Of a stretch of 64,000 bases of DNA, positions 29,702 through 45,145 are shown one piece after another. The stretch is from NCBI GenBank assembly GCA_965243025.1, contig CBDETY010000003.1:3584001-3648000 (forward strand). The letters run 5' to 3'. The notes beneath the pieces are model-generated. The model was not told the origin of the DNA. It worked only from the letters and a program-made list of their open reading frames with translations, and searched no databases. Source of the DNA: Candidatus Latescibacterota bacterium (lineage in GTDB: Bacteria > Latescibacterota > UBA2968 > UBA8231). Position 1 is the stretch's first letter. Each line of letters begins with the position of its first letter. Position numbers and translations under genes: made by a program.

Positions 29702-29857
29702 CCCCCATTCCTGGCAGGCGCAGCCGGCACCTCGACGCCCAATTCCCGAATCCCCCGGGTACGCCAGTCCGGACTGAAACCCACACCGGCGACGCCTTCC
29801 AGACCAGCGGGACTACGCGCGCAGGCACACTTGCCCGCCCCCGTGTAACCCGGGATT

Positions 29858-32080
29858 TCAGAAATACAGCTTGTGCAGCACCCGCAGGTTGCGGCCCGGC
29901 TCCGGCAGGATCTCCTTGACCCGGTTGAGGTGGCGGCGATAGACCGCGTTCGTGGCGTTTTCGAGGGTCGCCGAAAAAGCGTGCAGGCGTCCCCCCCAAC
30001 TGGCGAGGTACTGCCCGGACAGGTCGAGCACGGCGTAGCCGTCGGTCGGTTGCTCGAACTCGCCGGGACGGTCCTGGGCGGCGGCGAGGCGAAGCCCGAC
30101 CGTGCCGCTCAGGGACTCCCGTCCCCCGGTCAGACTGAAGCGCCCCTGGAGCGGAGGCAGGCGGGGAAGCGGCTCGTCGCCGCGGTCGCTCAACACCCCG
30201 CGAACCTGGCTGGCGGTGATCGTGGTCTTCAAGCTCCGCCACAGGTCCCAGTCGAGGGCGACCTCGGCGCCGCGCATGTCGACGCGTTCACCGACCGTCC
30301 GGTAGAGAAACAGGTCCGCCCGCCGCGGACTGAGCACGCCGGTATTCCTTTGGAAGATGAAACCGTCGATGTCGTTGCGGAATACGGCGAGACGGAGATG
30401 CCCCCGGGTGTGGCGGTAGTCGGCGAACAGCTCGATCCCCTGTCCGCGCTCGCTGTCGAGGGCCCCGTTGCCGACTTCGTAGGAGTAGGCGGCCAGGTGC
30501 GGCCCCTCCGAGAACAGCTCCTCGAGTCCGGGGGGCCGGAAGGTGCGCATCAGGGTGGTGCCGAGGGTCAGAGCTTCCACGGGGCGAAAGTGAGCGGACA
30601 GGCCCCCTGACAATCCGGCGAAGTCCCGCCGCTGTATGCGCCCGACCTGGTTGGAATGACGCTCCTCCCGCGGCTGGACGCGGCGCACGTCGAAGCGGAC
30701 GGCCCCTTTCGCTGCCCAGTCTCCGCGGTTCCACTCCTGGTAGGTGAAGCAGGCGCCGGCGTACTCGGTTGTCGGAGGGGTGAAGTTGAGGCCGGCGGCG
30801 GCGTAGTTCCGGTATTCGTACCAGACCCCGGCGGCGCCGTTCTCGAAAGGACCCACCGGGTTCAGGCGGGCGAGGCTCGCGAGGTGGTGGGTCAGGAGGC
30901 CGAACTCCAGGCCCAGCGATCCGTTGGCCTCGAACTCCCCGTGTTGGTAGCGGGAGAAGGTGTGGTGCAGCTCGAGCTGTCTGATCCGGTCCGAAACGGC
31001 CCGAAAATCGGCTCGCGATTCAAGGTGCTGGCGCTCCAGGAGAATCGATATCCCCAACGGGTGGCCCCCCTCCGGATCGGGAGGGATGCCGTACTCGGAA
31101 TCGTAGAGGCTGCCGGATACCCCGAGGTGGCCCCACGGCCGCACCAGGCTGACCCCCAGCGATCCGTTGCCGGTGCGGATGTCGGTGTTGACCAAGGGGC
31201 CGCGCGGGGTCGCGACATCCCCGGCACTGCGCAGGCTGCTGTCGAAGCGCATGGCCAGCGGCCCCAGCGGCTGTTCGAACGCCAGGCCGGCGGACAGGCC
31301 GCCGGTTACGCTTTCCGCTTGCCAGGTGAAGGAACCGTTGCGCCCCTGCGGCTGCTCGGAAGGGACGTATCCGCGGACGACGTTGACCACGCCTCCCAAT
31401 GCGTTGGAGCCGTACAGCATGGTTCCCGGACCCCGCACCACCTCGATGCGCTCGGTGGTCATCGGTTCGATCGCCACCGCGTGGTCCGCACACGACGCCG
31501 ACAGGTCGCCGGTGCGCTCCCCGTCCTCGAGCACGAGCAGGCGGTCGCCGCTCAGTCCGCGCAGCACGGGACGCGCCGGCGCCGGACCCATGGTGCGCTG
31601 CGCCACCCCGGGCTCGTAGTCCATGGTCTCGGCAATGGTGCGGCTCAGGTTCTGGCGGAGCTTGCTGCCGCTGAAAACGACTTCCGGTTTCTGCAGCGGG
31701 GAAAGCGGCCGCTCGCGATCGTCCTCGACCACGGTCTCGTCCATGTGCAGGGGTTCATGGCCGATCCGGAGATCGACGCGGGTGGTGTCCCCCGGTTCGA
31801 TGCGCACCTCGAAACGGGCGTCGCGGTATCCGAGGTGCAGCGTCTGCAGGGTGTACACCCCCGGGGTCAGGGCGGGGAAGAGGAAATACCCTCCGGTGTC
31901 GCTGACGCGGCCGCGGTTGATCCCCTCCACGACCACGGTTGCCCAGGGCACCGGCTCGCCCGTGTCGGAGTCGACGACGCGGCCGGCCAGCGCCCCTGTT
32001 GCCGCGGCGTACAGGGGCGCTGCCGGCAGGAATGCGGCAAGGGCAGCCGCGCCGAAGACCAGCCCCTTTCTACCCTTCAT
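29858..32080 (-). CDS. TonB-dependent receptor, ZnuD-like metal uptake
   Basis: PARPVLRGLSGDR, DHAVAIEP, IEVVRGP..MLYGS, EELFSEGPHLA..YEVGN, YRRHL..KE..PEPGRN; terminal F. Confidence 0.92.
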   Translation of the reverse strand: MKGRKGLVFGAAALAAFLPAAPLYAAATGALAGRVVDSDTGEPVPWATVVVEGINRGRVSDTGGYFLFPALTPGVYTLQTLHLGYRDARFEVRIEPGDTTRVDLRIGHEPLHMDETVVEDDRERPLSPLQKPEVVFSGSKLRQNLSRTIAETMDYEPGVAQRTMGPAPARPVLRGLSGDRLLVLEDGERTGDLSASCADHAVAIEPMTTERIEVVRGPGTMLYGSNALGGVVNVVRGYVPSEQPQGRNGSFTWQAESVTGGLSAGLAFEQPLGPLAMRFDSSLRSAGDVATPRGPLVNTDIRTGNGSLGVSLVRPWGHLGVSGSLYDSEYGIPPDPEGGHPLGISILLERQHLESRADFRAVSDRIRQLELHHTFSRYQHGEFEANGSLGLEFGLLTHHLASLARLNPVGPFENGAAGVWYEYRNYAAAGLNFTPPTTEYAGACFTYQEWNRGDWAAKGAVRFDVRRVQPREERHSNQVGRIQRRDFAGLSGGLSAHFRPVEALTLGTTLMRTFRPPGLEELFSEGPHLAAYSYEVGNGALDSERGQGIELFADYRHTRGHLRLAVFRNDIDGFIFQRNTGVLSPRRADLFLYRTVGERVDMRGAEVALDWDLWRSLKTTITASQVRGVLSDRGDEPLPRLPPLQGRFSLTGGRESLSGTVGLRLAAAQDRPGEFEQPTDGYAVLDLSGQYLASWGGRLHAFSATLENATNAVYRRHLNRVKEILPEPGRNLRVLHKLYF

Positions 32081-32585
32081 CGTCGTGATCCTCGTCGGCG
32101 TGGGAGTCCTCGGAACCCGGGCCCCCTTCTTCGACGTGGATCTCGATATCCTTCGAGACGAAATCGGCGTGGTCGTTGTGGTTCAGCTTGACCACCAGGG
32201 TGGTCTGCCCTTCTTCCAGGCCTACGATGTGGAAGGACCAGTGGCCGTCTTCCTCGTGGTGGTCGACTTCGGCGATGCTCTCGTCGCCGATTTCCCAGTC
32301 AAGGCCATATCCTTCGTCGGGGTCCGGGACGAACCGGTCGCCGTCCTCGGCGAGGAAGCGCACGGTCAGCAGGGGTGTTTCCAGGCCGTGCCCGACTTCG
32401 ATTTCCCCCTCTACCTTGCCGCTTTCCTGGCGGACGAGCTCCTCGCCGCTGCTGAGTATGACCAGGCCGAACGCCTCGGCGTGGTCATCCCACTCATGGA
32501 CGTCTACGGGGTTGTCGTCGTCGCCGCAGCCTGCCAAAAGCAGTAATGCGAGAAGGGATGATGCGGTTGAGATGATCCTGAGCAT
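32070..32585 (-). CDS. His/Asp/Glu-rich lipoprotein, putative metal-capturing partner of the TBDR
   Basis: Lipobox LLAGC; DHAEAFG, HNDHADF, acidic/His-rich tail; overlaps the TBDR start. Confidence 0.8.
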   Translation of the reverse strand: MLRIISTASSLLALLLLAGCGDDDNPVDVHEWDDHAEAFGLVILSSGEELVRQESGKVEGEIEVGHGLETPLLTVRFLAEDGDRFVPDPDEGYGLDWEIGDESIAEVDHHEEDGHWSFHIVGLEEGQTTLVVKLNHNDHADFVSKDIEIHVEEGGPGSEDSHADEDHDDEG

Positions 32586-32716
32586 GGTACGGTTCTCCGG
32601 GTAGTGCCCCTGTGCGCAAGAGTCGGGCCCAGGGAACGATGTGGTGGATGTGAACCGGGCGGGGAAGGCTGAGGGCAAGGAGCCCTCCAGCCTGCTCCGA
32701 CCGGAGCCGGGAGAAC

Positions 32717-32816
32717 GCATCCGCACGCACCGATCCGGGTTGCCCGCCGAAGCGACGAGCCGAGAGCAAAGGCTCCCGGGACGGCGGGAAGGACTGCGTG
32801 AAGCGGGTGCGGATGC
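32717..32816 (-). promoter_or_regulatory. Large nested hairpin directly after the RAPP leader stop
   Basis: GCATCCGCAC/GTGCGGATGC (10 bp), inner CCCGCCG/CGGCGGG and GAGCC/GGCTC stems. Confidence 0.6.
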
Positions 32817-33161
32817 TCAGGTGCGGGGTGGGGCGCGGTTTGCGAAGGAGTAGCCGCGGAAGAAAAGCGGCAGAGGGACGGACCAGAGAGTCCTCTTGCG
32901 GTCGCGGGAGCCGGGGCTCACAAAAAGGAGCGGAAGGACGACGACCACGAGCAGCACAAGGCTGCTCTCGATCATGCAGACCGGGCAGTTCTCCGGCTCG
33001 GCTTCCCCGTGCTCGTGAAACAGCTCGTGACCGAAGGGAAGCGCCAGGAAGAGTCCGATCAGCAGGGCTCCGAAGCAGAGCACCGCCAGATTCGCGGACC
33101 CCCGGCGGTCTCTTCGGACCTGGTTGGCGGAGAATACGAAAGGGAAAGCTCTGCAATCCAT
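32817..33161 (-). CDS. DUF2946/CruR-like leader peptide with CxxC and C-terminal RAPP arrest motif
   Basis: Hydrophobic segment, HELFHEH...CPVC, second hydrophobic segment, ends NRAPPRT*. Confidence 0.72.
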   Translation of the reverse strand: MDCRAFPFVFSANQVRRDRRGSANLAVLCFGALLIGLFLALPFGHELFHEHGEAEPENCPVCMIESSLVLLVVVVLPLLFVSPGSRDRKRTLWSVPLPLFFRGYSFANRAPPRT

Positions 33162-33178
33162 GCTGTTGCGGTCGTGTT

Positions 33179-34225
33179 TCACCTGTTGCTCACTCGCCAG
33201 ACCGTCGCGCCGCCCCGGGCGTCGAGGGCGGCAAGCAGGCGTCCATCCGGTCGCCAGTACAAGCCGCCGACAACATCTGCCACAAGCGCAGCTCCTGTCG
33301 GATCGCCCTGTCCATCGCGCCTGAGCGACCACACGACTACGCCGCCATCCCGGGCTCCCGAGGCCAGGCGCATCCCGCCGCGTGCGAAGGCGAGCGTTGT
33401 AACAGGTTGATCGTGAAGTTCCAGAACGCCGGGCCGCGTGCCTTCGGGACCCCTTCCCTGGAAGCTCCAGACCGTCACCGCCTCGCCTCCGCCGGTGGCC
33501 AGAAGGGTGCCGGTGTCATCGAAGGCCAGGGCCGACGGCTTGGCGGGATATCCCGACATCATCGAGTCCTGCTCCGTGGAGCGGCGCCAGAAGTGCACGG
33601 AGTTGTCCTGGCTGCCGCAGGCCACGATATCCCCGTCCGGACTCAGAACCATCGATACCAGGGATCCCTGCCACTCCAGCTTCTGGCGAGGCTCGCCAGT
33701 GGACGCGTCGAAGAACGTCACCCGACCGTAACAGGCCGTCGCCAGCTCCCCTGCGCCGGACCAGGCGATCGCGCTGACGGTGCTGGGATGATCGTCAGAT
33801 CGCCAGATTTCCACTCCATCCGCACCATACGCGCGAACCTGCCGGGCGCAGGAGGCTGCCAGCCATCGGCCGTCCGGCGACCACGCCACGTTTTCCACCC
33901 AACCGCTTCCGGCGTCGATAGCCTGGCTGACCTGACCCTCGGCGGCACTCCAGATCAGGACTCGCCCGTCCTGGCCGGCCGTGGCGAACGCGGTTCCGCC
34001 CGGGTGGATCGCCGCCGCGAGCACACCGCCTTCATGAACCTCCCGCCGTTCCCAGGCGGTCGCGCCGGACTTGCCGTCGAACGCGTAGACGCCACCGGCG
34101 GCGTCACCGACCATCAGCGCCTCACCGCGCAGGCTCCAACCGCCGGCGATGGCGTAGTCGCCGACCTCGGCGGACCAGCCCCGGCGAAGAACGCCCCTCG
34201 GGCTGTCGACATTCAAACCAGACAT
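33179..34225 (-). CDS. WD40-repeat protein
   Basis: FATAGQDGRVLIW, VAWSPDGRWLA, ACGSQDNSVHFW, LASGARDGGVVVW; overlaps the CobW stop. Confidence 0.92.
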   Translation of the reverse strand: MSGLNVDSPRGVLRRGWSAEVGDYAIAGGWSLRGEALMVGDAAGGVYAFDGKSGATAWERREVHEGGVLAAAIHPGGTAFATAGQDGRVLIWSAAEGQVSQAIDAGSGWVENVAWSPDGRWLAASCARQVRAYGADGVEIWRSDDHPSTVSAIAWSGAGELATACYGRVTFFDASTGEPRQKLEWQGSLVSMVLSPDGDIVACGSQDNSVHFWRRSTEQDSMMSGYPAKPSALAFDDTGTLLATGGGEAVTVWSFQGRGPEGTRPGVLELHDQPVTTLAFARGGMRLASGARDGGVVVWSLRRDGQGDPTGAALVADVVGGLYWRPDGRLLAALDARGGATVWRVSNR

Positions 34226-35559
34226 GCCTCGAATCTCAGCCGCATGCCCTGCTCATCGAGGTTGCGGCCGATGAAGACGAGCTGATTGCGGCGGGGCGCG
34301 TCCCCCCATGGACGGTCCGGTTGTCCGTCGAAGAGCATGTGAACCCCCTGGAAGACGAAGCGGCGCGACTCGCCCGCGAGGCTGATGAAGCCCTTCATTC
34401 GGAAGATGTCCACCCCGCGTTCACGGAGCAGTTCGCCAAGCCACTCGTTCAGCCTGTCGGGATCGACGTCCCCCTCCCTCTCGATCGCGATCGAGCCCAC
34501 TTCGTCGTCGTGCTCGTGCTGGGCGACCCAGGTGCGCTCGACCTCCTGCCCGATTGCCGCTCCTTCCGCGTTCGTCAGTCGGAGATCGAATTCTTCGGCG
34601 GTGTGCTGGGCGTAAAGGCCGACCCGCACCTGCTCATCGACCTCCAGGAAGAACGACTTGCGCCCCGGGGAATCGAGCGGGAGGTTCACATGCTTTCCGA
34701 CGGGAATCTCTTCCCCCGGGCGAACGAGCTCCGCAGGTTCGGCGTACCGCCGCACGCACCACTCCGCACCCTCGCGGAGGGCAGCGTCATCCGTGCCCTG
34801 GCCGGGGACGACGACCAGCGACATCGCCGGATCAGGTCCATCGGCGAGGCTGAGCTCGCAGCGGCCGCTATCGAGCGAATAGACTCCGGTCCACTCGAAC
34901 GGGTATTCCGGCTCGAGGAAGGTGGGACGACGGTCGAGCGCCTGGTCCAGGTCGAAGGCGCCGAGGTTGAGTACCGTGTCGACGGAGACGTTCGCCCGCT
35001 CGCTGCGCACGACTTGCGCCATCCGGTTCATGTCCCGGAGCCGGGTTTCGAGCCTGTCGAGCGCCTCGCCGTCGACGAGGTCGGTCTTGTTGAGCACCAG
35101 GACGTCGGCGAAGGCGATCTGCTCGGTGCTTTCGTCGCTGCGGCCGAGCTGTTGCTCGATGTGGGCTGCATCGACGAGCGTGACGATCCCGTCGAGCGAG
35201 AACTCCGCGTGAATCTCGTCGTCCATGAAGAAGGTCTGAGCGACCGGACCGGGATCGGCGAGCCCCGTGGTCTCCACCAGCACGTAGTCGAACTTGTCGC
35301 GGCGCTTCATGAGATTGCCGAGCACGCGAATCAGGTCTCCGCGCACCGTGCAGCAGATGCAGCCGTTCGACATCTCGAAGATCTCTTCGTCAGCGTCGAT
35401 GACGAGCGCCTGATCGATGCCGACCTCCCCGTACTCGTTCTCGATCACGGCAATGCGCTTGCCGTGCTCCTCGCTCAGGATCCGGTTGAGCAGGGTCGTC
35501 TTGCCGGAGCCGAGGAAGCCGGTGAGGATGGAAACAGGAACTTTTCGCGGCGTATTCAT
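34213..35559 (-). CDS. COG0523/CobW-family G3E GTPase metallochaperone with an internal insert domain
   Basis: GFLGSGKTT, ENEYGE, NGCICC, ETTGLADP, NKTD, CobW_C FRMKG..FQGVH..LVFIGR. Confidence 0.95.
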   Translation of the reverse strand: MNTPRKVPVSILTGFLGSGKTTLLNRILSEEHGKRIAVIENEYGEVGIDQALVIDADEEIFEMSNGCICCTVRGDLIRVLGNLMKRRDKFDYVLVETTGLADPGPVAQTFFMDDEIHAEFSLDGIVTLVDAAHIEQQLGRSDESTEQIAFADVLVLNKTDLVDGEALDRLETRLRDMNRMAQVVRSERANVSVDTVLNLGAFDLDQALDRRPTFLEPEYPFEWTGVYSLDSGRCELSLADGPDPAMSLVVVPGQGTDDAALREGAEWCVRRYAEPAELVRPGEEIPVGKHVNLPLDSPGRKSFFLEVDEQVRVGLYAQHTAEEFDLRLTNAEGAAIGQEVERTWVAQHEHDDEVGSIAIEREGDVDPDRLNEWLGELLRERGVDIFRMKGFISLAGESRRFVFQGVHMLFDGQPDRPWGDAPRRNQLVFIGRNLDEQGMRLRFEACLV

Positions 35560-35868
35560 CTAGTTCTCCCGGGTGAATGGTGCGAAGGCGGCAGTCCGGA
35601 CGTCGAACCCCCACGCCTTGCATACCTGGACCAGGTCCCTGTGGTCAACGGCGTCCATGGGTTTGTGCAGCTTGTGCTGAAGCTGTGGCGCATCGGGCCG
35701 AAGCAGGCCAATCACGGTCTCGATGGGCGCACAGCCTTCTTCGAGACATGCCAGCTCGGTGACTGTAACCGTCGTGCCGTCGGGAAGGCTCAGCGCGGCC
35801 CGCAATGCCTCCTTGATTTGTCGAACCCGTTCGCGGTTCGGGCGACGCGGTGATGTGTTGATCAACAT
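35560..35868 (-). CDS. Small conserved protein with a CxxxGCxPxET motif
   Basis: VTELACLEEGCAPIETVI; its stop abuts the CobW ATG. Confidence 0.75.
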   Translation of the reverse strand: MLINTSPRRPNRERVRQIKEALRAALSLPDGTTVTVTELACLEEGCAPIETVIGLLRPDAPQLQHKLHKPMDAVDHRDLVQVCKAWGFDVRTAAFAPFTREN

Positions 35869-35884
35869 GTTCCCTCTTGGGCGG

Positions 35885-36043
35885 CGGGGTTCGGTACGAG
35901 CCCAAGGACCGCGAGCATCAACACCCCGTTGGAGAGCGCGGTATACCGTGGCGGGACCGACACCCGTTCCGCTCAGGTGGCTCCACAGTTTCCTGGCGGA
36001 ACAGGGGGCCGTCCGCCTCGCCAAGGGCTCGCAAGACGGTCAT
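35885..36043 (-). pseudogene. Frameshifted Fur-family regulator remnant
   Basis: MTVLRALGEADGPL, then after a frameshift SARKLWSHLSGTGVGPATVYRALQRGVDA; resembles the helix-turn-helix of the 44765 regulator (GIATVYRQL). Confidence 0.6.
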
Positions 36044-36054
36044 CTGTGCATGAA

Positions 36055-36086
36055 TTGCATGATAATTGATTTTCAATTATCGTCAA
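36055..36086. promoter_or_regulatory. Fur/Zur-type operator within overlapping divergent promoters
   Basis: Perfect GATAATTGA-ttt-TCAATTATC (36061-36081); rightward TTGCAT-N17-TATCGT; leftward TTGACG-N16-TATCAT. Confidence 0.8.
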
Positions 36087-36157
36087 GGCTTGCTCTCAGC
36101 ACGGGAGTCTCGTCTCTGGGGCCTCAGGCCGGGACGCCAAATACCAAGCGAGGGTGA

Positions 36158-36559
36158 ATGCTGAAATCCAGGTCGCCAGCCCTGCAGCTCGGCGCCGACG
36201 TTGTGGGCGCCGTCGGATCGTCACTGTGCGCCCTGCACTGCGCCATCCTCCCCCTGAGCCTGGTGCTGGGCACCACCTTGCCTCTCACGCTGATGGGCGA
36301 GGAGATCTTCCATCTCGGCCTGCTGTGCCTGGTTCTCCCGGCCGGAATCGTGGCGTTCAGCCTGGGTTGCCGTGAGCACCGCGATGTCTGGGTGCTGGCC
36401 CTGGGGGCCATCGGCATGCTTGGGATCCTGCTGGCCGCCACGGTGTTGCACGATGTCCTCGGCGAGTCCGGTGAGCGCGCAGCGACGCTCGCGGCGGCCG
36501 TCGTCCTGATCTCCGCCCACGCCCGCAACTACCGCCTGTGCCGCGCAAAGCCGACTTGA
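36158..36559 (+). CDS. MerC-domain membrane protein
   Basis: GAVGSSLCALHCAILP, E.FH, GCREH, ISAHARNYRLCR. Confidence 0.85.
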   Translation: MLKSRSPALQLGADVVGAVGSSLCALHCAILPLSLVLGTTLPLTLMGEEIFHLGLLCLVLPAGIVAFSLGCREHRDVWVLALGAIGMLGILLAATVLHDVLGESGERAATLAAAVVLISAHARNYRLCRAKPT

Positions 36560-36577
36560 CTGCGGCCCGCCCGGGGG

Positions 36578-37309
36578 ATGAGCCGCATGAGCCGTAGATC
36601 TCTGCCGGTCGTGGCCTCCCTGTTGATGCTGACCGGCGTGACGGCAGCTCGACAACCCGCACACGTACACGGGATCGCAACCCTCAACCTGGCAATGGAA
36701 GGGGACGAACTCGAGATCGAGTTCGCGTCACCGGCCGGCAATATCGTCGGCTTCGAGCACGAAGCCGTCACCGCAGCCGAGCGTCGAGCGATCCGGGATG
36801 CGATCGAACAGCTGAGGAAGGGCAACGAGCTGTTCGACCTGCCGCCTGCGGCCAGCTGCAGTCTGCATGTCGTCGCAGTGGAGCACGGCCACGGAGAAGA
36901 AGAGAAGAGCGAAGATGGTCATGGACACGACGCTGAGCACGATCACCGCGACGAGCACGGACACGCTGAAGAGGAAGGGGACGGCACGCACATCCGACAT
37001 GAAGCCACACGGGTCGGCGGCGTCGAGGACGGGCATGCCGGCGAGGGGGGGGAGGGCGCCCACTCCGGAGACGAAGCCGGACACGATGACGGCGACGAGC
37101 ACGGACATGCCGGCGAGGATGGGGACACTCACTCCGAGTTCCATGCACGCTATCGCTGCGAGTGCAATGGATCAGCCATCGAGACGATCGGGGTTCGTCT
37201 CTTCGAGCACTGGCCGCGCATCGAGGAGATCCGTGTGCAGGCACTGACGCCGGCCGGCCAGTTCGGTGGCGTTGCCAAGGCAGATGACCCGGTGATCAGG
37301 CTGAGATAG
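36578..37309 (+). CDS. zrgA: ZrgA/DUF2796 His-rich periplasmic zinc-binding protein
   Basis: AHVHG, SPAGNIVGFEH, long His/acidic linker, HSEFHARYRCEC. Confidence 0.88.
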   Translation: MSRMSRRSLPVVASLLMLTGVTAARQPAHVHGIATLNLAMEGDELEIEFASPAGNIVGFEHEAVTAAERRAIRDAIEQLRKGNELFDLPPAASCSLHVVAVEHGHGEEEKSEDGHGHDAEHDHRDEHGHAEEEGDGTHIRHEATRVGGVEDGHAGEGGEGAHSGDEAGHDDGDEHGHAGEDGDTHSEFHARYRCECNGSAIETIGVRLFEHWPRIEEIRVQALTPAGQFGGVAKADDPVIRLR

Positions 37310-37330
37310 CTGCGCGAGCCGACGCCCGAC

Positions 37331-38032
37331 GTGAACGAAGAGCTCATCGAGATCGAGGACCTGCGCTTCGGTTGGCCCGGCGCCGCGCCTCTGCTCGGTT
37401 GCGACCGCTTCCTCCTGCGACGAGGCGAACACCTGTATGTCCGCGGCCCTTCAGGCAGCGGCAAGTCGACGCTGTTGAACCTGTTGGCGGGAGTACTGAC
37501 GCCGGACTCGGGCCGCCTGTCGCTGATGCGCCAGGATACGGGCTCGCTGGCCGCGGCGGCTCGCGACCGGCTTCGCGCCGACCACATCGGGTTCATCTTC
37601 CAGCAATTCAACCTGGTCCCCTACCTCAACCTGGCCGAGAACGTCGTCCTGCCCTGCCACTTCTCCCGGCGCCGAGCCACGCGAGCGGCCGAGGCGCACG
37701 GTGGCGTGAAGGCTGCCGCGCGGTTGCTGCTGCAGCGCCTGTTCGTCGAGGAGGGACTGGATCCGGCGGCACCGGTATCGAGGCTCTCCGTCGGCCAGCA
37801 GCAGCGCGTGGCCGCGGCGCGGGCCCTGATTGGCGATCCCGAGATCGTGATCGCGGACGAACCGACCTCGGCACTCGACTTCGATGGGCGAGCACGCTTC
37901 ATCGAGCTGCTGTTCGAGCAGGTTCAGGCGTCGCGGGCGACGCTGGTCTTCGTCAGTCACGATCCAACCCTCGCGGCGTGCTTCGACCGTACAGTCGACA
38001 TGGACGACTTCCGAGCGGAGGCTCGCGCGTGA
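37331..38032 (+). CDS. zrgB: ABC transporter ATP-binding protein (ZrgB-like)
   Basis: GPSGSGKST, FQQFNLVPYL, LSVGQQQRVAAARAL, ADEPTSALD. Confidence 0.9.
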   Translation: MNEELIEIEDLRFGWPGAAPLLGCDRFLLRRGEHLYVRGPSGSGKSTLLNLLAGVLTPDSGRLSLMRQDTGSLAAAARDRLRADHIGFIFQQFNLVPYLNLAENVVLPCHFSRRRATRAAEAHGGVKAAARLLLQRLFVEEGLDPAAPVSRLSVGQQQRVAAARALIGDPEIVIADEPTSALDFDGRARFIELLFEQVQASRATLVFVSHDPTLAACFDRTVDMDDFRAEARA

Positions 38033-39270
38033 ACGTGCCGCGTCTGGCCTGGAAGAGTCTGCTGAACCGGCGCGATACCGCGTCGCTGACCATCCTGACG
38101 ATCGCCGTCAGCGTGGCGCTGCTGCTCGGCGTCGAGAAGGTCCGATCCCACGCGCGCGTGAGCTTCGCCAACACCGTGTCCGGTACCGACCTGATCGTCG
38201 GCGCTCGCAGCGGTTCGGTGCAGCTGTTGCTCTACTCGGTGTTTCGCATCGGCAACGCCACCAGCAATGTCGCCTGGTCCAGCTATGCGGACATCTCGAC
38301 CTGGCCAGGGGTCCGCTGGGCCATCCCGATCTCGCTGGGCGATTCGCACCGCGGCTACCGCGTCATGGGCACGTCTACCGGCTACTTCGAGCACTTCCGC
38401 TACGCCGGCAAGCGTCGTCTCGGCTTTTCGGAGGGTGGGCCCTTCGCCGAGACGCTGGACGCCGTCCTCGGCGCGGAAGTGGCGCGCAAGCTCGGATACC
38501 GGCTGGGCGATGAACTGGTCGTGACCCACGGCATCGGGACAGAGGGCTTCGGCGACCACGACAACCACCCGTTCAAGGTCACCGGCATCCTGGCGCCGAC
38601 GGGCACGCCCGTGGACCGCACCGTTCACGTCGGCCTCGCGGGGATCGAAGCCATGCACAGGAACTGGAACCGCGTCGAGACCGATCTCCGGCGCCCTCGG
38701 GGCCAGGACCTGACCCCGCGCCAGATCACCGCCTTCCTGCTCGGCCTCGACAACCGACTCGCCGCCTTCAAGCTGCAGCGGGACATCAATCGGTATGGCG
38801 CCGAACCCTTGCTCGCCATCTTTCCGGGCGTGGCGCTGCAGGAACTCTGGGACCTGATGCGCGTTGGCGAACAGGCGCTGCGGGTCGTCTCGATCCTCGT
38901 CGCGGCCGCGGCGCTGGCGGGTCTGCTTGCGGTCTCCCTGGCCGGACTCAACGAACGCCGGCGCGAAATGGCGGTGCTGCGCTCGGTCGGCGCCGGCTAT
39001 CGCCACGTCATGGAGTTGCTCATCGCGGAGTCGGCGCTGTTGACACTGCTCGGTATCGCAATGGGAGTAGCGATGCAGAACCTGGCGCTGCGGGCCTTGC
39101 AGCCCTGGATCGTCGAGCGCTTCGGCCTGCTCCTGCCGGTCGGCTTGCCCACTGCGGGCGAATGGCGGCTGCTAGGCGGTCTGATGACCGCCGGCCTGCT
39201 CGCCGGCCTGGTGCCTGCCTGGCGCTGTTACCGGAACTCGCTCGCCGACGGACTGTCGACTCGTCTGTGA
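38029..39270 (+). CDS. zrgC: MacB/FtsX-type ABC permease (ZrgC-like)
   Basis: SGTDLIVGARSGSVQLLLYSVFRIG, PISLGDSHRGYRVMGT, ERRREMAVLRSVGA; GTGA overlap. Confidence 0.9.
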   Translation: MNVPRLAWKSLLNRRDTASLTILTIAVSVALLLGVEKVRSHARVSFANTVSGTDLIVGARSGSVQLLLYSVFRIGNATSNVAWSSYADISTWPGVRWAIPISLGDSHRGYRVMGTSTGYFEHFRYAGKRRLGFSEGGPFAETLDAVLGAEVARKLGYRLGDELVVTHGIGTEGFGDHDNHPFKVTGILAPTGTPVDRTVHVGLAGIEAMHRNWNRVETDLRRPRGQDLTPRQITAFLLGLDNRLAAFKLQRDINRYGAEPLLAIFPGVALQELWDLMRVGEQALRVVSILVAAAALAGLLAVSLAGLNERRREMAVLRSVGAGYRHVMELLIAESALLTLLGIAMGVAMQNLALRALQPWIVERFGLLLPVGLPTAGEWRLLGGLMTAGLLAGLVPAWRCYRNSLADGLSTRL

Positions 39271-39311
39271 GGGCGAGAGACTCTCAGTCGCAGATCAGGA
39301 GGACCACGCCC

Positions 39312-39857
39312 ATGTCTCGCCAACCATTGCTCATGTTGCTGCTCGTCACCAGCGCAGCCGCCGCGGACTCGCCGCGCGAGATCCTGTGGGACCAGCTCGT
39401 TCCCGAGGGCTGGAATCCCTACGCCCTGTTCGATGAACTCAGCGACGAGGAGTACGCCGCACTCAGCGACGAAGAGTACTTCGCGTTGCAGGAGAAAGCC
39501 CGGGAAATGCTCGACAAAGCACCCGTGGTAAAGGAGCTCGATGGCCAGACGGTCAGGATTCCGGGTTTCGTATTGCCCCTGGAATATAAGGGAACACGGA
39601 TCCGCGAATTCCTGTTGATGCCCTTTCTCGGTGCCTGTCTCCACACCCCGCCGCCGCCGGCCAACCAGATCATCCGCGGCAGCCTCGCGCAAGCCCATGA
39701 CCTGCGGGAGATGTGGCGCCCGGTCTGGATCTCCGGCCGCCTGAAGACGGGTCACGCTACCGGCAAGCTTGGTGAGGACGGTTACGACTCCATCACCAAT
39801 GTGAGTTTTGGCTACTCGATGGACGTCGAGTCGATCGAGCCCTACAGGCAGCGGTAG
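39312..39857 (+). CDS. zrgD: DUF3299 protein (ZrgD-like)
   Basis: I.WDQL.P, VRIPGFVLPLE, FLLMPFLGACLHTPPPPANQ. Confidence 0.9.
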   Translation: MSRQPLLMLLLVTSAAAADSPREILWDQLVPEGWNPYALFDELSDEEYAALSDEEYFALQEKAREMLDKAPVVKELDGQTVRIPGFVLPLEYKGTRIREFLLMPFLGACLHTPPPPANQIIRGSLAQAHDLREMWRPVWISGRLKTGHATGKLGEDGYDSITNVSFGYSMDVESIEPYRQR

Positions 39858-39887
39858 CTCGGTGAGGGGTACCCCGGGAGCGAATCA

Positions 39888-40985
39888 ATGGCTGAAGATC
39901 AAAACTTGAAAGAACCGATTCCAGTAACAATCATCAGCGGCTTTTTAGGTGCGGGCAAAACTTCCCTGCTCAACCACATTCTCAACGCCGACCACGGATT
40001 GCGCGTGGCAGTGCTGGTCAACGACTTCGGAGAAATCAACATTGACGCCGAGTTGGTCTCCGGGGTCTCCGGGGAATCCACCATCAACCTTTCCAACGGG
40101 TGTATCTGTTGCTCGATTCGCGATGACCTGCTCGAAGCAACGGTTCAGTTGATTCAAGACCCGAACCCGCCGGAGTATATCGTCGTTGAAACGAGCGGCG
40201 TATCTGACCCGGAGGCGGTTTCATTGACCTTCATGGCTATCGAATTGCAGTCTCGGACGCGAGTGGACAGTGTGCTGACCGTGGTCGATGCGGAGCAGAT
40301 TTACCAGGTGAACGAGAAGCATCGCAGACTCGCCGTAGACCAGATCGCCATGGCAGACATTGTGGTGTTGAACAAGCTCGACCTGGTCAATGATGAAAAG
40401 CGGGAGGAATTGGCGGACTTTGTCACCGATCTCGTTCCGAGAGCGCGTATCCTCGAAGCTACATATGGCAAGGTTCCGCTCGATCTGGTACTCGGTTCAG
40501 GGACATACGACCTCCACCGCTTTTCGGGGAAGTCAGGCCTGGACGTTCACGTCCATGCGGACGGCGAGGCGCATGAACACGACCACTCTCACGGGAATCA
40601 TCACGAACCCCATACCGACCATACGCTTGTTTTCAACACGTGGTGCTATACGACCGACAAACCTCTGTCACGTGGGGCCGTTCTTGATGCGATGAGAACC
40701 CTGCCTGCGACTATCTACCGCGCCAAAGGGTTTGTTTACCTCGCCGACAATCCCGGTCGGAAGGGAATCGTCCACGTTGCCGGCCTGCGGGCGCGTCTGA
40801 TCACTGGTGAGCCGTGGGGCGACGATAAACCGGGGACACAGTTGGTTTTTATCGGTGAGGAAGGTGGAATAGACGCTTGCGAGTTGCAATCGCGCTTTGA
40901 TGCGTGCCAAACGGAAAATGATACTCATCAGGATGCCGCGTTGGATGCCGCTTTTGAATTGTTTCGGCAGCTTACAGCGAAATAG
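39888..40985 (+). CDS. Second COG0523/CobW-family GTPase
   Basis: GFLGAGKTS, VNDFGE, NGCICC, ETSGVSDP, His-rich linker, YRAKG. Confidence 0.95.
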   Translation: MAEDQNLKEPIPVTIISGFLGAGKTSLLNHILNADHGLRVAVLVNDFGEINIDAELVSGVSGESTINLSNGCICCSIRDDLLEATVQLIQDPNPPEYIVVETSGVSDPEAVSLTFMAIELQSRTRVDSVLTVVDAEQIYQVNEKHRRLAVDQIAMADIVVLNKLDLVNDEKREELADFVTDLVPRARILEATYGKVPLDLVLGSGTYDLHRFSGKSGLDVHVHADGEAHEHDHSHGNHHEPHTDHTLVFNTWCYTTDKPLSRGAVLDAMRTLPATIYRAKGFVYLADNPGRKGIVHVAGLRARLITGEPWGDDKPGTQLVFIGEEGGIDACELQSRFDACQTENDTHQDAALDAAFELFRQLTAK

Positions 40986-42063: not shown

Positions 42064-42098
42064 GATTAATGATAATGAACTATCAATTATCCATGCAA
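42058..42098. promoter_or_regulatory. Second Fur/Zur-type operator in the divergent lgt / ABC promoter
   Basis: GATAATGAACTATCAATTATC (42071-42091) is near-identical to the 36061 box; leftward TTGCAT-N18-TATCAT. Confidence 0.75.
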
Positions 42099-42128
42099 AA
42101 TGCATCTGCCCGGGCTGGGCTGACAGCG

Positions 42129-42890
42129 ATGGCGAATCCAATGCTCCTTTCGGCAACTGGACTCTCGCTCGGCTATGGGACCGAGACCGTCGCTGAAGAC
42201 GTCGCCTTCAACCTTGCGCCCGGCGACGTGCTCGCTGTTGTCGGTCACAACGGATCGGGAAAATCGACCCTGATCAAAACAGTGTCGGGCGCCTTGCCGC
42301 CGCTTGCCGGCACGCTCAACTGGCCCGTCGGGCGGCCACCGACAATCGCTTATCTGGGCCAGAGGACCGAGTTCGACAGCCGCTTTCCCATCCGGGTCCG
42401 CGACATGGCTGCAATGGGTGCCTGGCCCAACCTCGGGTTTCTCGGCCGCATCGACTCTGAGTGCCGGGCCCGGATCCGGTGCGCGCTCGAGCGCACAGGC
42501 ACCGCCGGGATCGCCGACATGCCCCTGCACAAACTGTCCTCGGGTCAGCTGCAACGGGCGCTGTTTGCCCGGACCATGGTTCAGGATGCGCCGCTGATCC
42601 TGTTGGATGAGCCGTTTACGGCCGTCGACCAGACAACGGAAGCGGCTCTGCTGACCCTGATCGATCAATGGGCCGCGGAAGGACGCACCATCATCCTCGT
42701 TCTGCACGACCTTTCCGCCGTTCTACAACATTGCACCTCAGCGCTTCTCCTGGGAGATGGCCGCGCGTTTTTCGGTGCCCCGAAAGAAACGCTTACGCCC
42801 GACAACCTGGTCGTTCACCGGTACCTGTCGCAAAGTCAGGCCGCCTGGATCGAAACCATGTACTCGCAATCGAAAGCAGACGATGTTTGA
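42129..42890 (+). CDS. Zn/Mn ABC transporter ATP-binding protein (AztA/ZnuC-like)
   Basis: GHNGSGKST, LSSGQLQRALFAR, LLDEPF, VLHDL; alternative start 42093. Confidence 0.9.
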   Translation: MANPMLLSATGLSLGYGTETVAEDVAFNLAPGDVLAVVGHNGSGKSTLIKTVSGALPPLAGTLNWPVGRPPTIAYLGQRTEFDSRFPIRVRDMAAMGAWPNLGFLGRIDSECRARIRCALERTGTAGIADMPLHKLSSGQLQRALFARTMVQDAPLILLDEPFTAVDQTTEAALLTLIDQWAAEGRTIILVLHDLSAVLQHCTSALLLGDGRAFFGAPKETLTPDNLVVHRYLSQSQAAWIETMYSQSKADDV

Positions 42891-43761
42891 GTGGCTCGAC
42901 TACGCGTTCATGGTCCGGGCACTGACCGCGACGACGGTGCTGAGTTTCTCCGTCGCCCCGGTCGGAGCATTCCTGGTGCTCAGGCGCCTGTCGCTCGCCG
43001 GGGAGGCGATGGCTCACGCCATTGTGCCGGGAATCGTCATCGCTTTCGTGATTTCCGGTCTGTCGGTGGGATCCATGATCGTTGGCGGGTTGACCGCCGG
43101 TATCACCGTCGCCGCCCTGACCAGCCTGCTCGCCCGTATGACAATCCTCCGCGAGGATGCGAGTCTGGCGTCGCTCTACCTGATCGCCCTTGCTCTGGGC
43201 ATCTTCATCCTGTCCGCCGCCGGCTCGGCGGTGCCGCTGAAGAGTTTCCTGTTCGGTTCCATCCTCGGCATCGACGACGAAAGCCTCATTCTGATCGGGA
43301 CGACGGCCACGATCACATTGGTGAGCTTCGCGCTGATCCTCAGGCCGCTGATCATCAATACAATCGATCCCGTCTTCCATGAGAGCCAGTCCAGGCACCC
43401 GGGCATCGTGGCTCACTGGTTCATGTTTCTGGTGGTGCTCAATCTGTTGGGGGCCTTCAAGGCGCTCGGCACGCTGATGGCGGTCGGCTTGATGATCCTG
43501 CCGGCGACGGCGGCACGCTACTGGGTCTCGACAATCACCGGCTACGTGATCGTGACCTTCGTATTCGCGCTGCTGAGCTGCTGGATCGGGTTGATCACTT
43601 CGTTCTATTTGCAGGACGTGCCTTCAGGTCCTGCAATCGTACTGGTTGCGGCGGTCTTTTTCTTCTTGAGCCTGATCTTCGCCCCGCAGGGATTTCATGC
43701 CGGCGCGCGCCTCAACCCGTACCGCCGCCAACCCCTGACCACCGATCAAAACTCAACGTAG
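42883..43761 (+). CDS. Zn/Mn ABC transporter permease (AztB/ZnuB-like)
   Basis: FMVRAL, LRRLSLAGEAMAHAIVPG, FLFGSIL, PSGPAIVL. Confidence 0.92.
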   Translation: MFEWLDYAFMVRALTATTVLSFSVAPVGAFLVLRRLSLAGEAMAHAIVPGIVIAFVISGLSVGSMIVGGLTAGITVAALTSLLARMTILREDASLASLYLIALALGIFILSAAGSAVPLKSFLFGSILGIDDESLILIGTTATITLVSFALILRPLIINTIDPVFHESQSRHPGIVAHWFMFLVVLNLLGAFKALGTLMAVGLMILPATAARYWVSTITGYVIVTFVFALLSCWIGLITSFYLQDVPSGPAIVLVAAVFFFLSLIFAPQGFHAGARLNPYRRQPLTTDQNST

Positions 43762-43774
43762 GAGCAAGAAGCGC

Positions 43775-44683
43775 ATGCAAAGACTATTCAGCCCACTGCT
43801 GGCAGCGGGCCTGGTCCTGGCCGGAATCCCCGCGGCCGCCCAGGACAGGATCAAGGTCGTCGCCAGCTTCTCCATCCTCGGCGATATGGTGCGCCAGGTC
43901 ACCGGCGATCTGGCCGAGGTGACAACCATTGTCGGCCCGGACGCCGATGCGCACGTTTACACCCCCAACGCGGCCGACGCCAAAGCAGTTGCAAACGCCG
44001 AGATTATCTTTGTCAACGGTCTGGGCTTCGAGACCTGGTCGCAAACCCTGATCGAGACGTCCGGTACCAAGGCCGAAGTATCCGTCGCGACGGATGGCAT
44101 AACGCCTTTGAAGGTTGACGGCGAAATCGACCCGCATGCCTGGAATTCGCTCACGAACGGCATGAAGTATGTCGCCAGGATTGCGGACAGCATGGCCGAA
44201 ATCGATCCGGAAAACGCGGCGGCCTACAAGGCCAACGCCCGCGCCTGCACCGCCAGACTGAAGGAACTGCACAACCGCGCGCTCGACCAACTCAAAAGAC
44301 TGCCCGCCGGCCAGCGCACGGTCGTGACCGCCCACGACGCCTTCGGGTACCTGGAGGCAGCCTATGGGCTCACGTTTCTGGCCCCGGTCGGGATCGACAC
44401 CGATGCCGAGCCGTCGGCACGGGACCTCGCCAGGCTGATCGATCACCTCAAGCAGGCCGGCGCCGGCGCGCTGTTCGTCGAGAACATCACCAGTCCGTCC
44501 CTGGTTCAGCAGATCGCGCGCGAAACCGGAATTCAGATCGGTGGCCGGCTGTTCTCCGACGCGCTCTCGGAACGCGGCGGCCCGGCGACCAGCTACGAGA
44601 AGATGTTCGAGCACAACCTGGGAACGCTGATTCAAGCGCTCAGCCAGCAATCGCAACTGGCCACAAGAAAAACGGCGTTCTGA
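43775..44683 (+). CDS. Zn/Mn ABC transporter substrate-binding protein (AztC/TroA cluster A-I)
   Basis: VVASFSILGD, DAHVY, NGLGFE, DPHAW, HDAFGY, SDALS. Confidence 0.93.
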   Translation: MQRLFSPLLAAGLVLAGIPAAAQDRIKVVASFSILGDMVRQVTGDLAEVTTIVGPDADAHVYTPNAADAKAVANAEIIFVNGLGFETWSQTLIETSGTKAEVSVATDGITPLKVDGEIDPHAWNSLTNGMKYVARIADSMAEIDPENAAAYKANARACTARLKELHNRALDQLKRLPAGQRTVVTAHDAFGYLEAAYGLTFLAPVGIDTDAEPSARDLARLIDHLKQAGAGALFVENITSPSLVQQIARETGIQIGGRLFSDALSERGGPATSYEKMFEHNLGTLIQALSQQSQLATRKTAF

Positions 44684-44764
44684 CGGCCACCCGATTGAAG
44701 TCCGTCCAACCGAATCAGGCATGCAGTCACCCATCCCAGGCCGCCGCTGTCAGGAGGTATCCTC

Positions 44765-45145
44765 ATGAACAACAGACGCACCAGCCAACGCAGCGCCATC
44801 GTGAGGGTTGTTCGCGACGCCCCCGGCCCGCTTCGCCCCCTGGAAATCCTCGGCCTGGCGTCCCGCATAGTGCCGACGCTGGGCATTGCAACGGTTTACC
44901 GGCAGCTCAGGCGCCTGCAAGACGCCGGTGAAGTGCGGGCGGTGGACCTGGGCGTCAATGACGTGCGCTACGAGCCGACCGACCGGGGCCACCATCACCA
45001 TTTTCTCTGTCGTGAGTGCGAGGAAGCGTTCGATATCCACGGATGCCCGGGAGGGATGGCGGAGCTGGCGCCGCCGGGTTTCGAGATCGAAAAGCACGAG
45101 ATCACGCTTTATGGACGATGCGGCGAATGCAGCGCCGGGAAGTAA
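44765..45145 (+). CDS. zur: Fur-family regulator, probably Zur
   Basis: TSQR, GIATVYRQL, HHHHFLCREC, LYGRCGEC; follows the Zn ABC operon. Confidence 0.85.
   Translation: MNNRRTSQRSAIVRVVRDAPGPLRPLEILGLASRIVPTLGIATVYRQLRRLQDAGEVRAVDLGVNDVRYEPTDRGHHHHFLCRECEEAFDIHGCPGGMAELAPPGFEIEKHEITLYGRCGECSAGK

Follow-up and report, generated by a model that had tools for sequence, protein, structure and literature searches.

In a stretch of 64,000 nucleotides (nt) of the genome of Candidatus Latescibacterota bacterium (assembly GCA_965243025.1, contig CBDETY010000003.1, positions 3,584,001 to 3,648,000; hereafter the window) we have identified a small open reading frame (ORF), located upstream of the genes for a lipoprotein and a ZnuD-like TonB-dependent receptor, with the appearance of a leader of the CruR/CutF class, i.e., a cis-acting peptide that would arrest its own translation at a C-terminal RAPP motif. 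Its genomic context is that of zinc uptake, and we give the reading as a zinc-linked arrest leader, with the mechanism proposed below, somewhat better than an even chance. When read from its ATG, the ORF runs from 33161 to 32817 on the minus strand and encodes 114 residues, with HELFH at 45-49, H51, CPVC at 59-62 and RAPP at 109-112, followed only by RT and the stop TGA, just as a preliminary description of this DNA had it. The codons of the candidate metal-binding loop (H45-x3-H49-x-H51...C59-P-V-C62) occupy 32976..33029 and those of the RAPP (CGC GCC CCA CCC) 32826..32837, both on the minus strand. In a Kyte-Doolittle profile (19-residue window) hydropathy values above 1.6 occur at about residues 29-39, behind an Arg-rich N terminus, and at about residues 66-78, so that two hydrophobic segments flank the metal motif.

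A lone RAPP is weak evidence, since 83 of the 30,140 stop-to-stop frames of 80-250 residues in this genome (65% G+C) have R[AG]PP within their last 12 residues; it is invariance and fixed spacing that count. Homologues of the leader amount to 61 proteins at an expectation value (E) of 0.01 or below, 22 of 61 related genomes (own genome counted) have a match at E <= 0.1, and a profile built from 27 members retrieved just 56 clusters among 1.84 billion representatives. Judging from these searches the family is real but small, and its named members all belong to Gemmatimonadota or Latescibacterota. In all 27 leaders P42, H45, H49, C59, R109, P111 and P112 are invariant, and H45, C59 and P112 remain so across 53 representatives. 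As candidate arrest core 19 of the 27 have RAPP and the other 8 RGPP, i.e., R-[AG]-P-P throughout, and among the 53 representatives it is RAPP in 37, RGPP in 4, KAPP in 7, RPPP in 2 and absent in 3. The tail after this core is exactly two residues long in 23 of the 27 leaders, and the distance from C59 to R109 is 50 residues, again in 23 of 27 (35 of 50 representatives, range 48-52). These constants bear out the earlier view of the ORF as a CruR-like RAPP leader in front of a TonB receptor. The same view had taken the CxxC as the metal sensor and had made the conservation of both motifs a test; the RAPP part stood in its R-[AG]-P-P form and the CxxC part did not, with the second Cys present in 9 of 27 leaders, whereas H45, H49 and C59 are found in every one. 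At this fourth position 9 of the leaders have C, 7 have R, 7 have H, 2 have Y and one each has D and S; among the 53 representatives it is C in 9 of the 50 that are readable there. The conserved element of the putative sensor is, on this alignment, H-x3-H-x9-C and not CxxC.

The start of the leader is more likely the GTG at 33182 than the ATG at 33161, because the two closest orthologues (L038 and L039) have only the GTG and because the ATG falls within a strain-variable insertion of 54 nt (33115-33168) at the N terminus of the leader. DNA contigs of two runs (X1 and X5) jump from 33114 to 33169, and the insertion is also missing in L038 and L039. The only other in-frame starts are this GTG, which gives a protein of 121 residues (32817..33182, minus strand), and a GTG at 33332. 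The GTG at 33182 shares bases with the TGA that ends the upstream WD40 gene (GTGA), and through this overlap the two genes are probably translationally coupled.

Much of the interpretation depends on the characterised members of this class. CruR (Bp2923), a DUF2946 (PF11162) protein of Bordetella pertussis, is the leader of cruR-bfrG(crtA)-bp2921; it has an export signal, CxxC at 90-93 and RAPP at 139-142, three residues from its end (49 residues from C90 to R139), a 162-nt intergenic region, a bubble of C over G and a Rho-dependent terminator, and its arrest is relieved by copper (PMC9426467). In its toeprint the two Pro codons occupy the P and A sites (PMC12992588), RAPP and RGPP are both described as arrest cores (PMC12992588, PMC10951233), and a 2025 survey lists TonB receptors among the gene classes enriched downstream of RAPP/RGPP upstream ORFs (PMC12992588). 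CutF, a DUF2946 protein of Rhodobacter capsulatus, precedes a detoxifying multicopper oxidase; a stem-loop masks the Shine-Dalgarno (SD) sequence of the next gene, and copper prolongs the stall and switches that gene on (PMC9973294). With these three reports in print (PMC9426467, PMC9973294, PMC12992588), the claim that the window contains an undescribed regulatory system has to be withdrawn as far as the class is concerned.

As in the case of CruR, there is a small ORF with an N-terminal hydrophobic segment, a Cys motif some 50 residues before a C-terminal RAPP, a stop two to three residues further on, and a long intergenic region before a TonB-dependent transporter, with a C>G bubble across the end of the ORF and the intergenic region. 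Unlike CruR, the leader family scores below the Pfam cut-off, has H-x3-H-x9-C as ligands in place of CxxC and has a second hydrophobic segment; a lipoprotein gene is inserted before the receptor, the leader is the fourth gene of its operon and not the first, the context is zinc and not copper, and the RNA that follows has three conserved helices (P0, P1 and anti-SD:SD, see below), while neither hairpin nor Shine-Dalgarno is a word used in the main text of the CruR paper (PMC9426467). The resemblance to CutF lies in a metal-binding leader (binding would be the predicted role here) with a proline-rich C terminus and in an intergenic stem-loop that masks the SD. In ApdA, ApdP and the surveyed upstream ORFs, RAPP/RGPP stands close to the C-terminal end of a small protein targeted to the membrane, and a downstream gene lies on the same strand (PMC10951233, PMC12992588), and those studied monitor Sec/YidC, unlike the metal leader proposed here. 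In formal terms the leader aligns to DUF2946 (PF11162) at 15.0 bits (E 0.044) over profile positions 55-117 of 117, which places its Cys-to-RAPP part on the end of the profile. Matches at E <= 1, from sub-threshold to borderline, are found in 26 of 33 leader homologues (best 2.1e-5), and the nearest named ESM Atlas clusters are DUF2946, at scores of 0.90-0.91. The relation to DUF2946 anticipated by the preliminary description is thus visible, at a level that misses the family cut-off. By its sequence the leader has a CruR/CutF-like architecture and fails two formal features of DUF2946, the score and the CxxC.

The intergenic region between leader and lipoprotein (231 nt in the window, 112-272 nt in relatives) opens with a nested hairpin of about 100 nt, P1 (32717..32816, minus strand), found both by folding and with a covariance model. 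As originally described, it starts at the first base after the stop: its 10-base-pair (bp) basal stem pairs GCAUCCGCAC (32816-32807) with GUGCGGAUGC (32726-32717) around a variable interior. A 110-nt element containing P1 folds at -51.2 kcal/mol (z = -2.75, equalled by 1 of 200 shuffles), and the whole 261-nt stretch at -116.4 kcal/mol (z = -3.63, 0 of 200). In relatives the 10-bp stem begins 0-2 nt past the stop and encloses interiors of 25 to 171 nt. With a covariance model built from 12 P1 sequences, 24 strong copies were recovered from 28 sources, second copies in four loci included; 97.8% of the cells of the model-fitted alignment pair, three pairs show compensatory change, controls with the alignment slid collapse, and the covariation score is 0.230 versus 0.133 in shuffles (reached by none of 500). 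RNAalifold gave the same stem on an unfitted MAFFT alignment.

Two further helices involve the start of the lipoprotein gene directly. Immediately 3' of P1 lies an anti-Shine-Dalgarno stretch, GUUCUCC (32710..32716, minus strand), whose UCUCC is conserved after P1 and which pairs with the lipoprotein SD, GGAGAAC (32592..32598, minus strand). Of the 22 intergenic regions folded, all 22 have the SD paired (probability of being unpaired at most 0.21), 19 of them with the UCUCC that follows P1. The third helix, P0, appears in the unconstrained minimum free energy fold and joins CC-UGA-GCAU (CCUGAGCAU; 32813..32821), which comprises the end of the last leader codon, the stop and 4 nt beyond, to AUGCUCAGG (32577..32585), the lipoprotein start codon and two more codons, both on the minus strand. 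In the other clade of the family the partner of the stop region (GGUGCUAGU) is the spacer between SD and AUG (ACUAGCACC), and L046 shows a compensated change. P0 duplexes average -12.9 kcal/mol for cognate pairs, -8.1 for non-cognate pairs and -6.4 +/- 2.5 for shuffled ones; within clades the values are -12.1 and -15.3 kcal/mol and across clades -4.2 and -7.1. P0 thus covers the start codon or the spacer, in addition to the pairing of the SD, and in silico the intergenic structure masks the SD of the next gene as reported for CutF. All seven loci profiled (of 26) have a C>G bubble that spans roughly -105 to +45 relative to the stop, and the genome has a rho gene. P1 as an intrinsic terminator was considered and rejected, no U-run following it; the terminator-like match at 32790-32773 comes from an inner hairpin whose tail is weak. 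A known riboswitch was also discarded, with no Rfam family matched in 29800-36300 at E <= 1.

Zinc is the best reading of the metal for the window cassette, and this preference is based on the shared Zur-type operator, the ZnuD ligand set, the zinc-type neighbours and the lack of copper families. The operator, a perfect 9-3-9 palindrome of the Fur family (Zur-type), GATAATTGA-AAA-TCAATTATC (36061..36081; full sequence GATAATTGAAAATCAATTATC), is one of just two sites in the 6.8-Mb genome with at most two mismatches over the 18 half-site positions; when the search was relaxed to six mismatches the hits were mostly noise. The other site (42071..42091, two mismatches to the first) precedes znuC, znuB (ABC-3), znuA and a Fur-family gene, the only one in the genome (about 42069-45112, plus strand). 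The same predicted operator is found before canonical zinc-uptake genes, as in a Zur regulon, and the placing of the leader in mid-operon under a Fur/Zur operator holds: it is the fourth gene behind an operator that recurs before znuCBA. On the minus strand the order behind the first operator is a 103-residue ORF, a COG0523 GTPase, a WD40 protein, the leader, the lipoprotein and the ZnuD-like receptor. These six genes fit a single operon, because there are gene overlaps (13 nt between the GTPase and WD40 genes, 11 nt between lipoprotein and receptor genes) and no other promoter-like site; the one overlapping the operator (TTGACG-16-TATCAT, 36059..36086, minus strand) is the sole sigma-70-like match in 32400-36300 (mean 0.3 in shuffles).

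Both products downstream of the leader turned out as predicted, a His-rich lipoprotein and a ZnuD-like receptor. The lipoprotein (32070..32585, minus strand, 171 residues) has the lipobox LLAGC, an invariant set of His residues and an acidic His-rich tail on a predicted Ig-like beta-sandwich (predicted local distance difference test, pLDDT, 81); its gene is found in 23 of the 26 cassette loci. A fold search matched generic Ig-like domains only and no solved sequence relative was found. The receptor (29858..32080, minus strand, 740 residues; CarboxypepD_reg, Plug and barrel) has ZnuD as its best solved relative (E 2.5e-31), with the copper porin OprC far weaker (1e-10). The high-affinity zinc ligands of ZnuD are Asp-99 and His-100 together with Glu-340 and His-499 (PMC4557270). 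All four align, in the structure of the Neisseria meningitidis protein (PDB 4RDR), with receptor residues D199, H200, E382 and H528 at chain positions 113, 114, 354 and 513, from which we infer that the chain is numbered 14 above the publication throughout, and 11 of 12 cassette receptors retain the four. Against NCBIfam NF038289 (ZnuD) the receptor reaches 137.9 bits, below the cut-off of 950. Unlike ZnuD, it has an extra N-terminal CarboxypepD_reg domain and a lipoprotein partner, and the only regulator of ZnuD mentioned in PMC4557270 is Zur. In relatives the cassette has FolE2 ahead of it or an ABC-3 permease behind it, or is preceded by DUF3299, MerC-like and His-rich genes, and none of 50 neighbouring proteins matches a copper family. 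The suggestion that the metal might be Zn, Ni or Co rather than Cu agrees with this context, which is zinc, and cobalt in one relative.

The mechanism that we infer would work as follows. Under zinc shortage the operon would be transcribed and the ribosome translating the leader would arrest when Pro111 occupies the P site and Pro112 the A site. It would then sit on the last codons and the stop (CCUGAGCAU), which would otherwise pair with the lipoprotein start (AUGCUCAGG) and in which a stretch rich in C and poor in G, such as Rho loads on, has its peak. As long as it is parked, the start region would be only half locked and Rho would be kept off, and the lipoprotein and the overlapping receptor would be expressed. 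Binding of zinc to the nascent loop formed by H45, H49 and C59 (plus C62), at that moment some 50 residues from the peptidyl-transferase centre and between the two hydrophobic segments, would release the arrest. The freed ribosome would melt P1, terminate and leave, upon which P0 and the anti-SD:SD helix would lock the start region, the naked RNA would be open to Rho, and expression would be off. The polarity would be the opposite of that reported for CutF, as expected because the target is an importer and not a detoxifying oxidase. A CruR-like action of Rho is equally open beside the masking of the start site, because of the C>G bubble in all profiled loci and the presence of rho; we treat both as putative parts of one model.

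How far a parked ribosome would open the start site can be approached by folding. The leading edge of a stalled ribosome is usually found at +15 to +17. With Pro111 in the P site it reaches only the first 1-3 nt of the P1 arm, so that the ribosome would abut the hairpin and, contrary to what had been supposed, would not cover its 5' arm; lying under it would be the 5' strand of P0, the stop-codon region. When the bases up to stop+2 or stop+12 were blocked in the folding, the AUG in the window became more accessible (0.74, from 0.19), and the mean cost of opening -16..+13 over loci fell from 13.1 to 10.9 (stop+2) and 11.2 (stop+12) kcal/mol. Contigs of two metatranscriptome and two other runs were placed on 29858-36100; contigs cannot show RNA level, ends or strand, and at 88% likeness the GTPase and WD40 genes gather contigs of relatives, which makes attenuation not readable from the public runs. 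Runs labelled sponge metagenome share part of the sequence words of the window.

A number of results weigh against a zinc-linked arrest leader working in this way. The comparison of folds with and without the ribosome footprint, put forward in the preliminary description as a check, did not free the SD of the window (probability of being unpaired 0.00, 0.00 and 0.00); the opening cost dropped by at least 3 kcal/mol in just 9 of 22 loci and did not drop in the window itself (12.0 versus 12.8 kcal/mol), and equilibrium folding accordingly predicts no clean switch there. The covariation of P1 is largely one split between two clades, and is modest evidence. At 15 versus 23.7 bits the leader is under the Pfam gathering cut-off of DUF2946, which none of 151 genomes of the phylum exceeds. 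Codon differences are more often non-synonymous than synonymous in all 12 leader pairs compared (20 versus 11 between the window leader and L039); the peptide outside the motifs is weakly constrained, which fits a leader with few sequence-critical positions. No Zur-type box is visible upstream of the stand-alone paralogues of the cassette, including L021. Finally, a distant member with HELFH...CPVD...RAPP (L031, 1405-8122) heads an operon of a receptor, a 223-aa protein, a CobW GTPase, CbiM, CbiN and CbiQ. This operon suggests a cobalt or nickel version, and because of it the leader family may not be zinc-only.

The last point leads to the nearest of the alternatives, that the leader belongs to the same stalling class and responds to a metal other than zinc, either copper as CruR does or cobalt/nickel as the CobW-CbiM-CbiN-CbiQ operon of the distant member would have it. 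His/Cys sites bind several metals, the sole characterised relatives sense copper (PMC9426467, PMC9973294), and the CutF authors describe clusters with His-containing motifs, of possible Ni/Co specificity and with links to Ni/Co genes, those concerned being CutF-like clusters with His-only motifs (PMC9973294). We nevertheless consider this unlikely for the window, where the Zur-type operator is common to the leader operon and znuCBA, the receptor is so much closer to ZnuD than to OprC and belongs to a group that retains the ZnuD ligands in 11 of 12 cases, copper families are missing from the 50 neighbours, and the copper-type CxxC is not conserved. About as unlikely is a leader of opposite polarity, in which the metal would prolong the stall as for CutF, or one in which the second hydrophobic segment would act as a monitor of membrane insertion in the manner of MifM or ApdP. 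That segment (centred at 66-78) lies 30-48 residues from the arrest point, a distance at which, in force-sensing arrest peptides, membrane insertion exerts a pulling force. An SD-masking stem-loop like the one seen here is also what CutF uses, as described in PMC9973294. An uptake system induced by its own metal would make little physiological sense, however, the downstream genes are not Sec/YidC components, and H45, H49 and C59 stay invariant amid varying surroundings.

The ORF could also be translated into a stable inner-membrane protein of two helices that binds metal and works together with the receptor, with an incidental RAPP and RNA helices that only stabilise or process the mRNA. Two hydrophobic segments with a conserved His/Cys loop between them are what such a protein would have, RAPP-terminal frames do arise by chance in a GC-rich genome at the rate given above (83/30,140), and the footprint folds gave no clear switch. 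We hold this to be unlikely as well in view of the invariant R-[AG]-P-P with its fixed two-residue tail and its fixed 50-residue spacing to the Cys, of a stop located exactly at the base of the hairpin in a region that pairs with the next start in clade-specific ways, and of the weak constraint on the rest of the peptide.

If the zinc-linked arrest leader is retained, the more ambitious proposal is that it is a zinc-sensing nascent peptide and the first translation-arrest sensor for this metal: a fast post-transcriptional checkpoint beneath Zur, built on a three-helix junction in which the stop region masks the next start, and with a variable fourth ligand that tunes individual modules. We put this forward tentatively and give it less than an even chance. 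The prevailing view is that Zur governs zinc uptake, by acting on transcription. In the literature that we found, experimental demonstration of metal-sensing arrest peptides is for copper only, and no zinc-responsive arrest peptide came up in our searches; the word zinc is absent from the main texts of PMC9426467, PMC9973294 and PMC12992588, whose supplements may already contain this family. A zinc-linked His2Cys branch would extend the principle to a second essential metal. Within this genome the copy embedded in the Zur-type operon and the stand-alone paralogue have different fourth ligands, and tandem modules in relatives differ in it too; if the proposal is true, this variation (C, H, R or Y) would adjust how tightly or how selectively individual modules bind, and the natural variants CxxC, CxxH, CxxR and CxxY would be a compact set with which to ask how metal binding by a nascent chain frees a stalled ribosome. 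The finding also names a likely cargo, zinc, for a lipoprotein-receptor cassette of Gemmatimonadota and Latescibacterota that was uncharacterised.

The remaining genes of the leader operon are all on the minus strand. The first ORF (35560..35871, 103 residues from its ATG) belongs to no family; it is followed by the COG0523-type GTPase, which is CobW/ZigA-like (34213..35559; cobW 1.6e-61, CobW_C 9.7e-27), and by the WD40 beta-propeller protein (33179..34225), whose gene has the 13-nt overlap with that of the GTPase and whose stop overlaps the leader GTG. Behind a Zur-type operator, a WD40 protein and a family-less ORF of 103 residues share an operon with a COG0523 GTPase. Divergent from the same operator, on the plus strand, is a zinc island (36158-40985) with a MerC-like protein, ZrgA, an ABC ATPase, an FtsX-type permease, DUF3299 and a second COG0523 GTPase, to which the znuC, znuB, znuA and Fur-family genes behind the second operator (42069-45112) also belong.

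Elsewhere in the family the arrangement of the cassette varies. The leader is preceded by other genes of its operon in the window, L038 and L039, while in the paralogue and most relatives no gene of the same strand abuts it upstream. The paralogue is a second leader copy in the genome of the window, 83% identical (C3:1266531-1266827), and forms part of a stand-alone cassette (L021, G000 C3:1258500-1274800) with a CPVR leader, hairpin, lipoprotein and receptor. Tandem modules of leader, hairpin and lipoprotein are found in L040 (6001-7620), L042 (4854-6331), L044 (4651-6411) and L047 (431-2036); the two leaders of L040 differ in their fourth ligand (CPAY and CPAC) and in an extra Cys/His. A relative of lower G+C (L049, 1-3155, minus strand) has DUF3299-like and MerC-like genes and a His-rich protein of 150 residues, followed by leader, lipoprotein and receptor; its leader contains (DHG)n-HDTHCFVCH and RAPP, and scores 22.5 bits against DUF2946, just below the cut-off.

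Two repeats were also seen in the genome. A pair of identical 21-mers, 1251 nt apart, occurs at C3:668652/669903 and again at C3:1273461/1274712, one of these places being about 5 kb from the paralogous cassette, and is probably part of a repeated mobile element. Contig C1 of G000 (14,617 nt) has identical 21-mers at 2184, 7172 and 12160, a spacing of 4988 nt, and would hold roughly three copies, in tandem, of a unit of 5 kb; a small circular element, joined into a concatemer on assembly, may lie behind it.

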